In this document: positions 52,990 through 59,854 of the stretch, in pieces
Position numbering within the stretch: the stretch's first letter is position 1
Layout of the letters: the number at the start of each line of letters is the position of its first letter
DNA from: a bacterium
GTDB taxonomy: Bacteria > Hinthialibacterota > Hinthialibacteria > Hinthialibacterales > Hinthialibacteraceae
Assembly: GCA_963663405.2 (NCBI GenBank)
Contig: CAXXSM010000106.1
Location: 1-64,000, forward strand
Length of the DNA stretch: 64,000 nt
Reading direction: 5' to 3'
The notes under the pieces: generated by a model
What the model saw: the letters and a program-made list of their open reading frames with translations, nothing else
The model's database searches: none
Told to the model about the DNA's origin: nothing
Position numbers and translations under genes: made by a program

Positions 52990-53075
52990 GCCGGAGTGGC
53001 GGAATGGCAGACGCGCTAGGTTCAGGACCTAGTGTCCTCCGGGACGTGGGGGTTCAAGTCCCCCCTCCGGCACCA
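52990..53075 (+). tRNA. tRNA-Leu(CAG)
   Basis: GCCGGAGTGGCGGAATGGCAGACGCG, CTAGG-TTCAGGA-CCTAG, long variable arm, GGTTCAAGTCC, encoded CCA. Confidence 0.96.
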
Positions 53076-53592: not shown

Positions 53593-54759
53593 ATGTACCA
53601 ACGAAGTCATAAACAATTTTCCCGTCAGGCGTTCTTCCGTAAAACCGATCCTCACCTTCTTTGCCGGTTTTTTCATGAAAAATATAATGTCGATCCGGAT
53701 TTGAACGAGATTCCAGAAGAAAATCGTGAAGACCATTTCAACAAAATATTAGATACTCTGGACGAGAATCCCCGTACGGAAGCGATTGAGGATTTAAGCA
53801 CTATTAATGATATGACGCATGACCGGGCGCGCGCTCTATTGCAACAGGAGGCGATCTTGGATCAAATTGACGGTATCGAAGGACTCCCATCGCACGATAC
53901 CGCGATGACGATGTTTCTTGATTATCCAGAACTTTTTGACAAAGCCCTAGCAATATTTACAATCGAAGAATTGACTAATTGGCGTCAATACCAATCCAGG
54001 GAGAAAGCGCCTGTCCCAAGAATCGATCATTCTAAAATACATTTGATCGAGAAAGGCCTATCCGATTATTTCAAAAATTATGGAATGGGAGATCATTGTT
54101 ACGTTCAACATTACGGAGATTCGGAACGGCATGTATTTGAGTTTTCTTTTGAGAATTTCCCAAGAGCGGAAGACGAATTCGATAAAGGGATACTCATCCG
54201 CAAGGTACGGCGTCCTGTTGTCCATTCAGTAGCGATTCTTTATCCGGAGTATCGGACGATCCGGATTAAAGCAACCCGGATAAATTGGATTGAGGAAATC
54301 CGGAATCAAGTTGGATATTCCCTGTATCAAGACGCCGATTTCTTTGATGTTGAAGATGATAAAATCATTGATTTATCCTCCTTCAGAAAGAGACCTCAGT
54401 TTATCACCGATCCATTTGATGAAATCCAATTTGTCCACCTTGTCAGTTTGAAAATCCGATCACATTTTAATGGGGGGATAATTACTACGATTGACGCGCA
54501 GGATACGGATTCAATCTACGAAACCGTAATTGGTGAATTCGGTATTGATCTGAATAACTGTGAAATCATTGGAATTAAAATCCGATTCAAGTTTCCAGGG
54601 AAGGGAAACGCCGGTCAACGCACGATTGAAATGAATGTTCCGAATCGATGTAATCTGTGTGATACGCAGAATGATCGAATCATTGATAGATACCTTCGGA
54701 AATGGAAGATAATGGGCGGCAATGAATCTCTGGAAACTCCTGTTTCAATCGCTGGGTAA
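53593..54759 (+). CDS. Hypothetical protein (genomic-island type)
   Basis: 388 aa, AGGAGG RBS, C-terminal PNRCNL...YLRKW; no function assignable. Confidence 0.75.
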   Translation: MYQRSHKQFSRQAFFRKTDPHLLCRFFHEKYNVDPDLNEIPEENREDHFNKILDTLDENPRTEAIEDLSTINDMTHDRARALLQQEAILDQIDGIEGLPSHDTAMTMFLDYPELFDKALAIFTIEELTNWRQYQSREKAPVPRIDHSKIHLIEKGLSDYFKNYGMGDHCYVQHYGDSERHVFEFSFENFPRAEDEFDKGILIRKVRRPVVHSVAILYPEYRTIRIKATRINWIEEIRNQVGYSLYQDADFFDVEDDKIIDLSSFRKRPQFITDPFDEIQFVHLVSLKIRSHFNGGIITTIDAQDTDSIYETVIGEFGIDLNNCEIIGIKIRFKFPGKGNAGQRTIEMNVPNRCNLCDTQNDRIIDRYLRKWKIMGGNESLETPVSIAG

Positions 54760-55754
54760 ACGAACGAACATACGGATCGATTACTCTTCTATTCACACAA
54801 TTCCCTCCTCTCAAATGAGCGTAGCGGCTGAATTCGGTCTCTACACGAAAGAGAACGCTGACACAGTAATTATGCCCAAGTATTCGATGGAACCGATTCC
54901 GGTTATGTATGTGAATAGGAAGTACTATCTCGATTTAAGAACGGATGACGCGCCGCCCTTGGTTGAAATCCAAGAAGAGGAAACACATGAATACGTTTTC
55001 GACGTTCACAAGTTTATCCAAACTTTCCAAAGCGTAAACGGATTTCTTCCTTTCGATACAGAAAACGGATTTGAAAATCTCTTACCCGGAATTAATTTGA
55101 TCGGCTACAAGATGACGAGTAACAATTATCGTTTCGCTGTCTTGCTTGTAAATACTGACCGTTGTTTTCCCTCTCGCTCTTTCTCTTCAAGAAGCCTGTG
55201 GGAGTGTGGGGGATTCGGATGCTATTCTCGCTTTGACAACGACCGAAGCCAAACTCAATCGAGCGGAACGAAAAGAATTGCATGCAAGGGGTATAACGGT
55301 TTACACTTTATTCTCATATTTGAAAGATGATTTGACGCTTTCAGAGACGATTTTCCAAACCAAACATAAACAGAGAAAGTCAAAGCAGTTACAGATTCCT
55401 CCCGGTACGAAATGGAAGGATGTCTACATTACCTTTATTGATGAAGTCAGAGTTAGAATTGAAATTAAAAATATTCGTCAAGTGTTAAGTTATTCGGAAA
55501 TGGACTTTCAGAATAAGAATAACAGTAGACCATCAACTCTATGGGATGCATTTTCAGTACTTGCGGAGTATCAAGGTCATTTGGATTAAGGAAATCGAAT
55601 AGAAGGGGATGAACGAGAAAAGTATAAAAAACACATTCAGAGAATTAATAATAAACTCATTACTCTATTTCATATTCCTGAAAAACCAATTATTTATAAT
55701 CATTTCAAGAAGGCTTATGTATGTAAGTTTGGTCTGAGTAGCAATTCTGAATAA
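54722..55754 (+). pseudogene. Hypothetical protein with putative C-terminal winged-helix, broken by a frameshift (~55.2 kb) and an in-frame TAA (55587-55589)
   Basis: Overlapping ORFs 54722-55330 and 55206-55589; the same frame continues after the stop (KYKKHIQRINNKL..F.I...PIIY...Y..KF) to TAA 55752-55754. Confidence 0.55.
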
Positions 55755-55845
55755 TTTCAATTTGTTAGCTGCAACATGAAAGCAGTGTATTTTATTAATG
55801 TATTTTATTAAGATATAAAAAATGAATAACAAGTATGTTGTTTAT

Positions 55846-57236
55846 GCCTCGTCAAAAAAATCTATGGGTAAATTCCGGTTGAGGAAGTTTACCAAGGGTA
55901 TGATACAAGGCGATTTCCAGCGTTCGAAATGTTCGAAAGCCGTACGCCATTTTGGTAGTCACTTTCGCTTTGTTATTTAATCCTTCCACGACACCAGAAG
56001 AAAACTCTTTTTTCGCCCGAAACCAGTTCAAAATCAGTTCCCGATGACGCCGAAGCATCTTCGCAACCTTTTTCATTGGCTCGATCCGGGATCGCATGGT
56101 CTTGGTACACCATTGATCCAAAAAACGGCCCGCCCACGATGCCGACTTATAGTCCCAGAAAAAGTGGAACTCTTCTTTTAAAAGATAACTACGCACGGTC
56201 CGAAGGTTATACCGAACCACATTGGCAAGTTTTTCCACCTGCTTCTCGGTTAGATTCACCGAACGTTTGAGAAACCACCAACGGCTTCCTTTCAAGACCG
56301 GCTCCAATCCCTTGGCTTTCAATTCACGGGCTTCCCCGGCGCGGCGCCTCATCGATGGCTTTATTCATATGGGCCACGATGTGAAAACGATCCAAAATAT
56401 GGATGGCCCCTTTCGCTTTCTTCGCCACGACTTTGAGATACGCTTTCCCCATATCGCTGCAAATGAATTCCAACTTCGCGCTCCGCTCCTCACCCAACCA
56501 GCGGAAAAATCTCAAAAACGTCTTGGCCGTTCTCTTTTCCCCAATCCAAAGTAACCGCCTACATCCCTCATTGATTTGATACACCGCAGTCACGTAATTG
56601 TGCCCGCTTCCCCATTGCATTTCGTCCACTCCGATGGCGGTGATTCCTTCCAGGTTCCTATGCTCCCGTCCCCAATTGACGGCCCTCTCCACCGAGCAAA
56701 ATACTTTGTGCCAACTCGTTTGAAACGCCTCCGCCACTTGCGTCCAATTTAACCGCTTCGCCCAACCCGCCAGAAACCACTGATACGCGCTCGTTAATTC
56801 GTGCTTTCCTTCGGCCCAGGGAACTTGCTCAATTTTTACCCCGCAGTCTGGACACTCGACACGCCGCATTGTGTAGATTAAAAAAAACGCGATTCCCCAC
56901 AGCGGGACCATTTCAAAACGACGCTTGTCACGCGTGTCGTATCCGGGTCTTTTCTTTCCACAGCCGGAACAGATTGGACGATTTCCCTTCCGGGGGCGGA
57001 TTTCAACCTCCAACACGGTTTTCTTGTTCCATTCGCTAAAATAGACCGAATCGTACACAAATCCCTTGATTTTATGAACGCGATTGAGGATAGTCTTTAC
57101 TTGCATCCGGTGGCCTCCTGATTGATGGTTTGTCTTCGTCGACTCCATCTTCTTAGGATACGTTACCGGATGTCCTTTTCTATCTCTCCTTCTTCAGCAT
57201 TCCCTCTTGTTTACCCACTGATTTCTCTGAGGAACC
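55846..57236 (-). mobile_element. ISL3-family insertion sequence
   Basis: IRs GGTTCCTCAGAGAAATCAGTGGGTAAA / GCCTCGTCAAAAAAATCTATGGGTAAA (20/27 match); no matching TSD. Confidence 0.85.
55852..57106 (-). CDS. ISL3 transposase (frameshift ~56340)
   Basis: CSGC..RRVECPDC Zn finger, IGVDE, CSDM, LDRFH, SGVVEGLNNKAK...YGFR. Confidence 0.92.
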
Positions 57237-58143
57237 ATAGTTTGAAGAAGATTTCTATTTGCCAGCGTTCCTTGTAGATGGCCGCGATAGTACGGGCGGC
57301 GAATTCGTGGTGATTGGTCAACAAGTCGATCATCCGTTTATTTTCTTCATCCCAAACCCGTACCAATCGGAACGTCATGCCGGAGCAGACTTCTTGCGCA
57401 CGATTCGAGGTGAAACGGATCGTATAATCGCCCCGTAGATTCGAATCCCCTGGGACCACTCGGCGGCTGATCAACTGATACTTCAAATTCTCTTTGAGCC
57501 AGGTGACAAAATACACGCCCCGGTCGGTCCATTGCCGAAACAATTCGAAATCGACATAGGCGCGATCCATGGCCACGATCGAGCCCGCGGCCAGATGAAG
57601 CAATCGGGCGATTGTGATATCGTGTTGTTTTCCCTCACCAATGTAGGCGTAGGCGGGCAGATACCCGTCGTGATCCAGGAGCAGGTGAAGTTTGACCGCC
57701 CCCTTGGTGCGCCGAAACTTCGCCCAATCGAACAGAGACGCGCACAAGTCAATGACGGACAAATCCAGGCTGTCGAGTTTGTTCTTGAAGCGGAATTTAC
57801 GTTTCCCCTGAAATTCCAACTGCGCTTGGCGCAAAAGCGTGTAAAAGAGAGCCTGGAACATTTCCCAGGAACGATGTTGATTCGCATAGGCGAGAGTTGA
57901 GCGCTTGGGGGCGTTTTTGATACCGAGATGGGTTAATTTCCCTACACATGTGGCCAATCCCCCGCAGATTTCTCGCAAGGATTTCGCTTGGCCAAGTTGG
58001 CAAAACAACATGGCTACCAATTGCTCCCTGCATGAAAAATTCTTCGCATAGCAATTCCCGGAATACGTGTCCACGATGCGGGCGAATTCAAAACGAGGTA
58101 TAAAGGCTAGGATTTGCGAAAAAAGACTGGCACAATAAGTCAT
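57237..58143 (-). pseudogene. IS4-family transposase (DUF4372 + DDE), C-terminally truncated
   Basis: SLFSQIL, SLREI, RSTLAYAN, AVKLH, DRAY, YKERWQIEIFFK ending at the ISL3 junction; GGAGG RBS. Confidence 0.88.
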
Positions 58144-58250
58144 ATCGGACACCTCCAGCATGGATTGGATATTTCGCAACTATACAATACCATGCGGGTG
58201 TCCGATTCTCATAGATGGACAATCCCTCATTTTTTTATTGGACAAGAGTG
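57237..58250 (-). mobile_element. IS4-family element, truncated at its 3' end by ISL3
   Basis: Left end CACTCTTGTCCAATAAA (minus strand from 58250); right end missing. Confidence 0.8.
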
Positions 58251-58370
58251 AATAGAACAAGTTTCCTGGATGGTTAAATTAACAGGGACATCCACGGAAT
58301 CATTATCAGCACCAATTACCGGAATTGCGAATAAAACAGCAAATGCGAATAAAGCGATAAATTTCTTCAT
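58251..58370 (-). pseudogene. 5' fragment of a secreted pilin-like (Csu/spore-coat-U-like) gene interrupted by IS4
   Basis: Manual translation MKKFIALFAFAVLFAIPVIGA-DNDSVDVPVNLTIQETCSI, then the IS4 end; GGGAGA RBS. Confidence 0.55.
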
Positions 58371-58407
58371 GATCATTCTCCAAAAGTAAGTTTTAAGCTT
58401 AAAAACA

Positions 58408-58485
58408 AGTGGACGGTTTCACAACTTGCTCCCAATCGCCCTATTCGTGACCAGATTAAAGGGCGAAAGATCTTCGCATCTCACT
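58408..58485 (-). ncRNA. c-di-GMP-II-like riboswitch aptamer, gene-proximal copy
   Basis: AGUGAGA-UGC-GAA-GAU..P3..loop UGGUCACGA..GGAGCA..UUGUGA-AA-CCG-U-CCACU: P1, kink-turn and pseudoknot. Confidence 0.75.
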
Positions 58486-58490
58486 TTTGG

Positions 58491-58569
58491 AGTGGACGGG
58501 TTCACGACTTGTGCTCCCCTTTGCCCCATTCGTGACCAGTTAAAGGACAAAGGATCGACGCATCTCACT
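58491..58569 (-). ncRNA. c-di-GMP-II-like riboswitch aptamer, middle copy
   Basis: Same architecture; P3 CCUUUGUCC/GGGCAAAGG; pseudoknot UCACGA/UCGUGA; AC in place of AA. Confidence 0.7.
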
Positions 58570-58576
58570 CATGCCG

Positions 58577-58654
58577 AGTGGGCGGATTCACGATTTGCTC
58601 TCCCCCTGCCCCATTCTTGACCAATTAAAGAACAGGGGATCGACGCATCTCACT
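58577..58654 (-). ncRNA. c-di-GMP-II-like riboswitch aptamer, 5' copy
   Basis: Same architecture; P3 CCCCUGUUC/GGGCAGGGG; one pseudoknot mismatch; AU in place of AA. Confidence 0.65.
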
Positions 58655-58865
58655 CAAATTTCTTCTTGGCGGACATGAGTTTTGCGGCTATAATAGAATC
58701 AGCCTATGTGGTTCCTTGTGGCTGTCCGCCATAACGCCCACCAGGACCACGCCCGCAGTACCCTCGCCTGGAGAGAGGACCAGTCTCTCCGGGCGAACTT
58801 AATTTAAACCAGTCATTTCATACCTCCTTTCTTTTAGGATACAATCCAACACAATAGGCTGGAAT

Positions 58866-59854
58866 TTAATTGACTTGCGTCGTTATATTGATCTTTCCAC
58901 TATATTTTCCTGATCCCATACCTGTCGTAATCTTAGCGCTCCCCGCTAGATAAAAGGTATGAAATCCACAACCGAAATTCAAGAATAAATCCGGCGCGCC
59001 AGGAGACACATTCTCACTCGGCTTCGCGTCCGCAACTGTCTTCCCGCTTCTCAATCCCAAATTCGACCGTGGAATCGTCCCCCCCCCGAACCGGATAATT
59101 CCGTAATACTGCACGTCACAGTGATCCGGCCCGCATTGGTCAAGACAAACACCCGCGGATACGTCTTCGAAACATTGTATCCAATATCACAATTCCCAAA
59201 ATCCATCAAATCGGGACACACAAAAATCCACGCAAACTCCGGACAACAGAAGGAACATTCGATCGATCGCGCAAAAACAGGCTTCGTACTTTTCCCCGCA
59301 AGGGCGAAGAACGTAATCCGCCCGCTATACACTCCCGCCGGGTCGGTGATGCCCAACCGCGCGCCGATGCGGAACCGGTTCGCCTCGAACATCTTCCCAT
59401 CCGAGCAGGCTCCTTCCGCGATCAAGGTATCACCGGAGATCTCCAACGTCCCGCCGAACGATTTCGTCAAGTTCACCGGATCCCGCTGCGGTTTGATGAA
59501 CAACCGCCCCGAATTGGCCCCCCCCGACCCATGAAAATCCTCCACCGTACAAAAGAGCTGCCACGTAGGCGCATACGCCCCAACATCGATGATGATTTCC
59601 CTCTCGGAGATGAATTCGATCGAAGAAGGATAGTCAACCCCATCACCCGAACCGGTGTTAAATCCTCTACCCCCCCCCGATTCTTTCAATTCCACCGAAT
59701 CCGTGTTTAGCGAAAAGGTCAGATCAGCGGGAATAGGCTTCAGCGCCCCTCCATCCGGGAGAATTTCCTGCGCGGCCAGGCCGGTTGAGAAAAGAACCGC
59801 CGCGGCGAGGAAGAGCCCGGTGTATACAGCGTCCCGCATGATTGGGTACATCAT
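58866..59854 (-). CDS. Secreted two-domain fimbrial/Csu-like protein (frameshift in G9 tract at 59079-59087)
   Basis: Signal peptide (LAA-Q); two domains ending PAGVYSGRITF and SGKYSGKINITTQVN; MDFG motif at the start of domain 2. Confidence 0.55.

Follow-up and report, generated by a model that had tools for sequence, protein, structure and literature searches.

What do three riboswitch aptamers do when they stand end to end in one leader, and do they all read the same signal? This question is raised by a 64,000-nucleotide (nt) stretch of DNA from a bacterium of the phylum Hinthialibacterota (assembly GCA_963663405.2, contig CAXXSM010000106.1, positions 1 to 64,000), hereafter the window. 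On its minus strand, positions 58655-58407 hold three head-to-tail repeats that resemble the class II riboswitch for cyclic diguanosine monophosphate (c-di-GMP-II). An earlier note on this DNA had proposed a cooperative or multi-input switch with unusual pockets ahead of a pilin-like gene. Our analysis makes it likely that the repeats are three fused aptamers of the c-di-GMP-II clan that feed one translational platform and act as an ON switch, and that the window copy is a decaying duplicate of an array on another contig of the same genome, C38.

Three abutting aptamers of the c-di-GMP-II family

A repeat search placed the starts of the repeats 83-86 nt apart, and the three copies, A, B and C, share a mean column identity of 83% when aligned with MAFFT. 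Measured from P1 to P1, the units are 80-81 nt long and are separated by spacers of only 5 nt (A-B) and 3 nt (B-C). The outer limits given in the earlier note are exact and its repeats are real, but the unit length of 78-79 nt and spacers of 5-7 nt that it reported have to be replaced by these values. The three aptamers are laid out as follows.

58576..58655, minus strand: aptamer A (distal). P1 58655-58649 with 58581-58576; P2 58647-58645 with 58598-58596; P3 58638-58630 with 58611-58603; pseudoknot 58622-58616 with 58592-58584; pocket A58587, U58586, G58583 (type AUG)
58490..58570, minus strand: aptamer B (middle). P1 58570-58564 with 58495-58490; P2 58562-58560 with 58514-58512; P3 58553-58545 with 58526-58518; pseudoknot 58537-58531 with 58506-58498; pocket A58501, C58500, G58497 (type ACG)
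58407..58486, minus strand: aptamer C (gene-proximal). P1 58486-58480 with 58412-58407; P2 58478-58476 with 58429-58427; P3 58469-58461 with 58441-58433; pseudoknot 58452-58446 with 58423-58415; pocket A58418, A58417, G58414 (canonical type AAG)

Every element that had been named is present in each copy. P1 consists of six pairs plus an extra A one pair off the junction, a bulge correctly described as common to all three. P2 (UGC/GCA), a 3-nt bulge and tandem G-A pairs (GA/GA) make up a kink-turn, and a seven-pair pseudoknot joins the P3 loop, GGUCAC(G), to a 3' strand, (C)GUGA-NN-CC, between P2 and P1. P3 has nine positions and was said to stay paired throughout; it does so at all positions in A and B, but C has two U-U mismatches. 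In A, an additional A separates P3 from the GA of the kink-turn. The outer P1 pair covaries as stated: C has A-U, and the other two copies have G-C. The unpaired dinucleotide that follows the pseudoknot strand is indeed AA in the gene-proximal copy alone, with AC in B and AU in A. From the 3' end of aptamer C to the likely ATG at 58370, there are 36 nt.

We compared the repeats with the Rfam models of clan CL00127. At gathering level, a scan of the window returned two tRNAs only and no riboswitch. In a permissive scan of 701 nt with RF01786 (c-di-GMP-II, gathering cut-off 53.5 bits), C scored 39.9 bits (E = 4.1e-7) and A 31.7 bits (E = 8.6e-5); against the whole 8.4-Mb genome the E values were 1.2e-6 for C, 2.5e-4 for A and 1.05e-3 for B, the last at 29.5 bits. 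The match is full length (model positions 1-84). Genome-wide, the same model gave 21 sub-threshold matches in 8.4 Mb, the best two being paralogues at 52.8 and 51 bits. With the variant model RF03169 (c-di-GMP-II-GAG, cut-off 40 bits), C scored 32.1 bits and A and B were not listed at E <= 1, and with RF03170 (c-di-GMP-II-GCG, cut-off 47.9 bits) no window copy was matched at E <= 1. Among the genome's paralogues, three pass the cut-off of RF03169 and one that of RF03170, with variant-model scores of 52.6 and 50.9 bits on contig C23, 40.6 for the proximal copy on C18 and 40.3 on C22. The Rfam scan that the earlier note proposed thus gave a divided answer: RF01786 matches all three copies, but each of them lies below the cut-offs.

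A covariance model of our own was seeded on three paralogues; 20 copies were realigned to the seed model and the model was rebuilt. The rebuilt model (R2) recovers 22 copies in the genome and scores aptamer A at 81.2 bits. Covariation was measured on 20 of these 22 paralogues, in an alignment fitted to P1-P3 that favors those helices. Standard pairs occupy 94.1% of the pair cells, compared to 79.3 +/- 1.1% in column shuffles (none of 500 reached the observed value), and only 43-51% of cells are paired when the partners are slid by one to three columns. Changes on both sides were seen in 16 of 24 pairs. The pseudoknot lies outside the alignment model and also covaries, at pairs 41-72 (GC in 12, AU in 8) and 43-70 (CG in 11, GC in 8, GU in 1). 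This establishes a genuine fold and the homology of the family to c-di-GMP-II, while the window copies stay below Rfam's own membership threshold. The c-di-GMP-II architecture first recognized in these repeats is borne out by the RF01786 matches and by the covariation.

A predicted Shine-Dalgarno-hiding helix would serve the whole array

We found neither a terminator nor a ribosome-binding site between the copies, either by terminator search and folding or in the 5- and 3-nt spacers, which agrees with the original observation that no expression platform separates them. The leader has instead one candidate platform, at its 3' end, built from the following minus-strand elements around the Shine-Dalgarno (SD) sequence; minimum free energy is abbreviated as MFE.

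58480..58492, minus strand: anti-SD strand of 13 nt, one arm of an inverted repeat with 92% complementarity; paired in the MFE structures of the window and C38 leaders
58378..58390, minus strand: partner of the anti-SD strand, ending in the SD sequence GGAG (58381-58378), 7 nt before the ATG at 58370
58566..58580, minus strand: alternative A-B hairpin of 5 bp in the whole-leader MFE, formed by the P1 3' strand of A (CACUC) and the P1 5' strand of B (GAGUG) over the 5-nt spacer

In the MFE structure of the window leader, 58492-58480 pair with 58390-58378 to hide the SD in a 13-bp helix; the C38 leader folds alike, and its GGAG-7 nt-ATG spacing is identical. The anti-SD strand is composed of CUCC (3 nt overlapping the 3' end of B's P1), three A's and the P1 5' strand of C (the last 7 nt). 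Because the strand also contains the P1 end of B (CUCC), folding of C's P1 alone would leave about seven pairs on the SD.

These folds suggest a mechanism. Without ligand, the 13-bp helix would pair the SD and its upstream flank with the strand made of B's P1 end and C's P1 5' side, and translation would be off. A ligand, most likely c-di-GMP, would stabilize the P1 helices; C's P1 would capture one half of the anti-SD strand and B's P1 would capture the CUC that covers the SD, so that the ribosome-binding site would become free with both B and C folded. Since B and C would both have to fold to free the ribosome-binding site, the array is most likely a translational ON switch, its direction being read from these predicted structures. 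Aptamer A would be tied to B only by the short predicted hairpin in which its P1 3' strand meets the P1 5' strand of B, and the contribution of A is the least certain of the roles that folding assigns to A, B and C.

We quantified this scheme with a binding polynomial, for which ViennaRNA supplied a constrained partition function for all eight ways in which the three aptamers can be folded or not, each with and without a free SD. The results for the window array and for its C38 twin are as follows.

Probability of a free SD, unconstrained: window 5.8e-6, twin 4.8e-4
Probability of a free SD, all three aptamers folded: window 0.094, twin 0.27
Probability of a free SD, C-only substring with C folded: window 1.3e-4, twin 5.3e-4
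Probability of a free SD, B+C substring with both folded: window 0.029, twin 0.13
A-B coupling: window -2.9 kcal/mol, twin -0.6 kcal/mol
B-C coupling: window -4.75 kcal/mol, twin -2.2 kcal/mol
A-C coupling: window 0 kcal/mol, twin +1.7 kcal/mol
Hill coefficient of the SD response: window 1.57, twin 0.97

These values support an ON switch for which B and C are both required; they speak weakly for cooperativity and lend nothing to a role for A. We therefore do not retain the cooperative switch of the earlier note as a finding: strong cooperativity was considered and set aside since the binding polynomial did not yield strong coupling, and the Hill coefficients of this crude equilibrium model are weak in the window and close to one in the intact twin.

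An intrinsic terminator inside aptamer C (58477-58463) was also considered and rejected. Terminator-like sites in the region number two, compared to 1.3 expected from shuffles, with one of them on the minus strand, inside aptamer C; the count equals that of shuffled sequence, and the hairpin competes with the aptamer rather than trailing it. As a separate observation, the 5' strands of P2, the kink-turn and P3 may form, in aptamer C and in its counterpart in the twin, a 6-bp hairpin followed by a U-rich stretch (58461-58477, minus strand). This hairpin would compete with the aptamer fold and is not present in A or B.

The pockets differ at a stacking base

The three pockets were said to be unusual and possibly altered in specificity. 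We compared them with the contacts in the c-di-GMP-II structure 3Q3Z, in which one guanine of the ligand is read by the sugar edge of A69 and the other by O6 of G73 together with the ribose of A70 (PMC13715770). A70 itself stacks between the two guanines without a base-specific contact; the ceiling of the pocket is the adenine after P2 and its floor an A-G pair at the top of P1 (PMC13715770). In the motif GYGA-A-N-CC-G, we took A, N and G as the equivalents of A69, A70 and G73.

Aptamer C: window A, A, G; C38 twin A, A, G
Aptamer B: window A, C, G; C38 twin A, C, G
Aptamer A: window A, U, G; C38 twin A, C, G

None of the three window copies has lost the base-specific readers, equivalent to A69 and G73, or the adenines of the ceiling and floor; the base opposite the floor A is U or C in them, not G. 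The sole pocket difference among the window copies is the stacking base (A in C, C in B, U in A). The consensus of RF03170, GGCGA-GC-CCG, has G, C and G at the same three positions, and the names GAG and GCG evidently encode them.

We next asked how common these pockets are elsewhere. A scan for the U-A pseudoknot form of the window array, in one genome per species, found at least 116 stretches outside Firmicutes, in Chloroflexota, Actinomycetota, Gemmatimonadota, Halanaerobiales and others; the search pattern requires an A at the first pocket position, so the sample is biased in that respect. For the pocket census we retained 80 loci from these stretches, with 87 aptamers.

AA..G: 61 of 87 aptamers
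AC..G: 18 of 87 aptamers
AU..G: 0 of 87 aptamers
Other pocket types: 7 of 87 aptamers
Misfit to the motif: 1 of 87 aptamers

Rfam cut-offs were passed by all 18 loci tested from other phyla (9 as c-di-GMP-II, 5 as GCG and 4 as GAG). This makes the ACG pocket an ordinary variant in nature, and the AUG pocket is rare and, in this genome, specific to the decaying window copy. Because the variable base makes no base-specific contact and C is common at this position in nature, altered specificity is possible but not indicated. Judging from the conserved readers, the ligand of the array is most likely c-di-GMP. It is plausibly made by the host, whose genome has 9 GGDEF matches, and the same genome carries 6 c-di-GMP-I riboswitches above cut-off.

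The window array is a decaying duplicate of the array on contig C38

The same triple array occurs on contig C38, with 93% (A), 98% (B) and 98% (C) identity per copy. The surroundings of the window copy are damaged, as the following features show.

58227..58376, minus strand: truncated first gene; signal-peptide-like N-terminus, about 38 native codons (58370-58256), then insertion sequence (IS) to the stop codon
57237..58255, minus strand: IS4-like element fragment, 99.6% identical to C166:16307-17324 over 1019 nt; transposase open reading frame (ORF) 57211-58179
55844..57239, minus strand: ISL3-like element inside the IS4-like element; ORFs 55852-56352 and 56324-57148
58866..59854, minus strand: upstream secreted-protein gene, 93-94% identical (tblastn) to the 328-amino-acid (aa) gene upstream of the twin array
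58764..58796: hairpin of 13 bp lying between aptamer A and the upstream gene; no U-run follows on the minus strand, and its mir-485 match is due to chance

The end of the IS4-like element, at 58255, interrupts the first gene after about 38 codons; the N-terminus of the element's transposase ORF is presumably DUF4372-like. Four further copies of the ISL3-like element occur at 96-99.5% identity, on C103, C161 and C122 (two), and past this element nothing is left of the IS4-like element or of the regulated operon. The upstream gene is split into two frames at 59081-59084, giving ORFs of 267 and 82 aa. In the array itself, base 58617 of aptamer A is A instead of the C found in the twin, which breaks one pseudoknot pair, and aptamer B carries a 2-nt insertion, CA (about 58510-58511), after the P2 3' strand and beside the pocket ceiling, that the twin lacks. 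Copy B scores 29.5 bits with RF01786 in the window compared to 39.4 bits in the twin.

Truncation of the first gene by an IS, the frameshift in the upstream gene and the damage to A and B mark the window copy as a decaying duplicate; it probably no longer regulates anything. The working version of the triple array is the one on contig C38. We considered and rejected an assembly artefact: two diverged loci share the triple array, and contigs of two other studies cover part of it. These contigs, from the runs of those studies, span 58497-58758 with 7 differences each, and both have C at 58617. The CA insertion is missing in one of them, and the other ends short of the insertion site. The IS junction is spanned without differences by one Logan contig (58222-59086).

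Two observations concern the neighborhood. The nested insertion sequences at 55844-58255, together with the missing far part of the IS4-like element and of the flanking operon, suggest a deletion beside the ISL3-like element. A tRNA at 52990-53072 (plus strand) is followed by plus-strand ORFs without obvious relatives (53593-55589) beside the IS cluster, which could be a tRNA-associated island.

Paralogues and abutting arrays in other genomes

The 22 aptamers of the family in this genome occur as singles, doubles and triples and with three pocket types. Within the array, identity among the copies is 71-88%, and their identity to the single aptamers that relatives have is 60-72%; between the two triple loci (window and C38), orthologous copies share 93-98%. 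Across copies the P1 sequences are more alike than those of P3. The array would have arisen by local duplication of a single aptamer, after which the whole array would have been copied to a second locus.

A consistent orientation in the 5' untranslated region (UTR) had been set in advance as one of the tests on which the reading could fail, and it holds across the family. We found that an ORF of at least 40 aa begins 19-43 nt downstream at 15 of the 16 loci of this genome. For 75 of the 92 aptamers surveyed in other genomes, an ORF equipped with an SD-like site lies no more than 300 nt away. Within the phylum, 6 of the 35 genomes examined have a match, and only this genome has more than one (22). 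The host is non-clostridial, as surmised: the nearest named relatives of one window protein are metagenome-assembled genomes labelled Candidatus Omnitrophota, at 68% identity.

Within this family the genome holds a second subfamily that lacks the G reading the second guanine; its motif is A-Y-CC-N-C-U, in which U pairs with the pocket-floor A. Its loci lie on C130 (77648, 79525, 82839, 87884), C149:52444, C6:40665, C55 (4061, 5880, 7681), C85:5098, C27:4914 and C18 (33780, 33865). The P1 3' strand of this subfamily, CCUCC, is a perfect anti-SD sequence and pairs with the SD in predicted folds. In at least five of its single aptamers in this genome, the MFE structure pairs the SD with this strand.

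We searched species genomes and metagenome contigs with a strict pattern for two abutting aptamers.

Species genomes, U-A type: 8 stretches, in 3 of which a second aptamer was confirmed within 25 nt
Species genomes, canonical type: 5 stretches, in 1 of which a second aptamer was confirmed
Metagenome contigs: 23 stretches, in 5 of which a second aptamer was confirmed

Abutting c-di-GMP-II aptamers recur but are rare, and in this strict-pattern search three aptamers within 5 nt of each other were found in this genome only. A metagenome contig (L263, 611-920) has three ACG aptamers with gaps of 46 nt and 0 nt; its platform is a hairpin with a U-run overlapping the last P1 3' strand, which is of the terminator type and not an SD helix. 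In Geosporobacter ferrireducens IRF9 (NZ_CP017269.1, 4418-4823; locus L256), a c-di-GMP-I-GGC aptamer (65 bits) precedes two c-di-GMP-II aptamers that are 3 nt apart and score 71.8 and 81.9 bits, both above the Rfam cut-off. In the MFE structure of this pair, the P1 3' strand of the first aptamer joins the P1 5' strand of the second in an 8-bp hairpin, and the last P1 3' strand covers the SD in a helix of 16 bp. The Geosporobacter leader as a whole puts three cyclic-dinucleotide aptamers of two classes before one gene.

Genes behind the aptamers and their probable secreted products

The gene behind the window array was described as pilin-like. What remains of it is a stub cut by the IS4-like element at 58255; no Pfam family fits the stub at E <= 0.1, and its intact 134-aa paralogue on C38 has a chance-level match only. 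A search among 5.8 billion proteins, covering those of similar length, returned the 134-aa protein itself and no relative. Its single-sequence AlphaFold2 model is unusable (predicted local distance difference test 43.3), and a language-model resemblance of 0.91 to an SCPU cluster, at rank 26, is a weak lead. Full-length relatives of the truncated gene, 164 and 147 aa long, follow single aptamers in two other genomes of the phylum (L043 and L045).

The operon context says more. The triple array on C38 is followed by genes for proteins of 134, 182 and 569 aa and by others, one of which encodes a secretin fragment (PF00263, E = 8.5e-17). A match of the 569-aa protein to WxLIP_PGBD is weak and below cut-off (E = 0.0023), and the language-model neighbors of this protein include PapD-like chaperones. 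The leader on C18, which has two aptamers 3 nt apart, stands before genes for a secreted protein of 254 aa, a 546-aa protein and a full secretin (E = 1.7e-38); the 546-aa protein is a paralogue of the 569-aa protein of C38 (20% identity, E = 1.3e-15). The C38 products are probably parts of a secretin-dependent surface structure, a function suggested by these neighbors. The label pilin-like was a reasonable guess at such a structure and not a finding; a role in surface fibers is a weak proposal drawn from faint leads and from the operon context at paralogous loci.

Further observations bear on these operons. C18 (3010-9128 of locus L130) and C38 (5630-15525 of L129) share one operon type, in the order secreted 330-aa protein, array, small secreted proteins, WxLIP/PapD-like protein of 550-570 aa, secretin and small lipoprotein; the C38 secretin is apparently split over several ORFs. 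The regulon of the family consists almost wholly of secreted proteins, among them leucine-rich-repeat (C149, C55, C27) and beta-propeller-repeat (C6, C85) proteins that we named by eye from their motifs.

Weighing the alternatives

Several points weigh against an ON switch of three fused c-di-GMP-II-type aptamers. No window copy reaches the gathering score of any Rfam model of the clan. The pyrimidine at the intercalating position of A and B could alter affinity or specificity, as could the A-U juxtaposition, in place of A-G, at the pocket floor. Assembly depth is low (2-5), and the 2-nt insertion and the frameshift, both counted here as decay, may be errors. The leader transcript may start inside the array. 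The whole-leader fold beats shuffled sequences modestly (z = -2.17, with 3 of 100 shuffles as good). Neither the pseudoknot and kink-turn nor kinetics and co-transcriptional folding enter the equilibrium model, according to which aptamer A adds almost nothing to SD release (a free-SD probability of 0.094 with A, B and C folded and 0.098 with B and C folded) and the intact twin has a Hill coefficient of 0.97.

Three rival explanations were weighed. It is very improbable that the repeats are a protein-binding or other structured element that merely resembles c-di-GMP-II. Every Rfam score does fall under its gathering cut-off, but RF01786 is matched over its full length (1-84) with E values down to 4e-7, all helices including the pseudoknot covary and the ligand-contacting bases are kept; moreover, alignable family members in other phyla exceed the Rfam cut-offs at all 18 loci tested, and the elements stand consistently just upstream of start codons. 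An explanation with a real, if small, chance grants that all three read the same ligand and denies any coupling: the extra aptamers would be recent duplications with little or no role, only such aptamers as touch the anti-SD strand would count, and A would be a passenger or a ligand sink. It draws on the model, in which A leaves the free-SD probability unchanged once B and C are folded, the A-C coupling is 0 and +1.7 kcal/mol in the two arrays and the twin responds with a Hill coefficient of 0.97, and on the relatives that use one aptamer before homologous genes. This explanation sits poorly with the retention of the three-aptamer layout at a second locus at 93-98% identity per copy, with the closer conservation of P1 than of P3, and with the recurrence, in unrelated lineages, of abutting aptamers with matching P1 strands.

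Lastly, the array could be a multi-input gate, in which the AAG pocket of C senses c-di-GMP and those of B and A another cyclic dinucleotide, for example 3',3'-cyclic GMP-AMP (cGAMP), so that two or three signals are integrated. Position 65 does differ across the copies (A, C, U), the Rfam variant models exist and the GCG consensus differs at the same three pocket positions, and the scaffold can change its ligand, as a c-di-GMP-II derivative with one base deleted binds 2',3'- and 3',3'-cGAMP (PMC13715770). The intercalating A, however, stacks and makes a ribose contact, and the base-specific readers A and G are kept in all copies. Single riboswitches of the ACG type are common and spread over many phyla (18 of 87), the metagenome array with three ACG copies is unlike a mixed-input design, and copy A is ACG in the twin and AUG in the window, so the position drifts between recent duplicates. 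We consider this gate quite unlikely. We give a similarly small chance to the bolder version in which the three pockets are deliberately different, A and B read a second cyclic dinucleotide or bind c-di-GMP much more weakly, and P1 strand exchange relays their state to the single ribosome-binding site. If true, deliberately differing pockets would make the array a natural multi-threshold or multi-input RNA gate from one riboswitch class.

Comparison with known systems

Among natural systems that process signals with RNA alone, tandem riboswitches are the main examples, and in the parts of the literature examined, c-di-GMP-II tandems have so far been described as separate complete switches. The window locus, its twin, the C18 relative and the Geosporobacter pair point to another design, with near-zero spacers, matching P1 strands and one SD-sequestering helix over two aptamers. 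If the coupling is true, such an arrangement would offer an easy means of giving an all-or-none decision its threshold; in this case the decision would be whether to build a secreted surface structure. The genome itself is a natural panel, with 22 aptamers of one family in single, double and triple units.

Compared to the RF01786 consensus, the window copies share P1, the kink-turn P2, P3 and the pseudoknot of P3 loop and 3' strand; they keep the A before P2, the A after P2 and both guanine-reading bases, and they lie in the 5' UTR of secreted or surface protein genes. They differ in score (29.5-39.9 bits compared to 53.5), in the extra A in P1, in the pocket-adjacent pseudoknot pair (U-A in the window array, G-C in the consensus), in the partner of the pocket-floor A (U or C in place of G) and in the intercalating A, in whose place copy B has C and copy A has U. 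RF03169 and RF03170 are members of the same clan with a loop of the same GGUCGCC type, and the middle pocket base of copy B is C as in GCG. The first pocket position is G in the GCG consensus and A in all window copies; the GAG model would differ at the same pocket positions, judging from its name alone.

Arrays of this class have precedents. The survey by Sherlock et al. (2022) records 59 doublets and 9 triplets of c-di-GMP-II (PMC9481103), so a triple arrangement, which the earlier note regarded as unusual, has been published before. Tandem c-di-GMP-II riboswitches are classed there as having multiple expression platforms and being pseudo-cooperative, and are mostly found in Paraclostridium upstream of COG4932 (PMC9481103). 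Like the window array, these tandems put several aptamers of the same class in one leader upstream of surface-protein genes; the window aptamers differ in that they abut (5 and 3 nt), share one SD-sequestering platform and occur in a candidate-phylum genome, and abutting cases may be among the published counts. A terminator or SD-sequestering element after each aptamer, the mark of the pseudo-cooperative tandem, is absent from the window array. A partial literature search, with supplementary tables outside its scope, turned up no account of c-di-GMP-II aptamers that abut and share a single platform.

In a second study, adjacent aptamers are those less than 20 nt apart, and c-di-GMP riboswitches tend to form complete tandem units, not adjacent aptamers (PMC12452182). 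The window aptamers are spaced by less than 20 nt, and in the predicted folds their anti-SD strand overlaps the P1 of both B and C, with dependence on several aptamers being a result of the model. The array would thereby resemble the glycine riboswitch and other adjacent-aptamer designs, in which several aptamers, as here probably for the same ligand, feed one platform; unlike those, it gives no sign of tertiary docking, and the coupling that we propose would act via shared or competing P1 strands. The Geosporobacter doublet matches the window array in its 3-nt gap, the complementary strands of neighboring P1 helices and an SD-covering helix, and differs in having two aptamers and not three, a G-C pseudoknot pair, the AAG pocket and a c-di-GMP-I-GGC aptamer ahead. 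Set against these systems, the locus is a real array of a known riboswitch class; its fused layout is uncommon, its pocket variant is ordinary, and it survives here only as a decaying duplicate.

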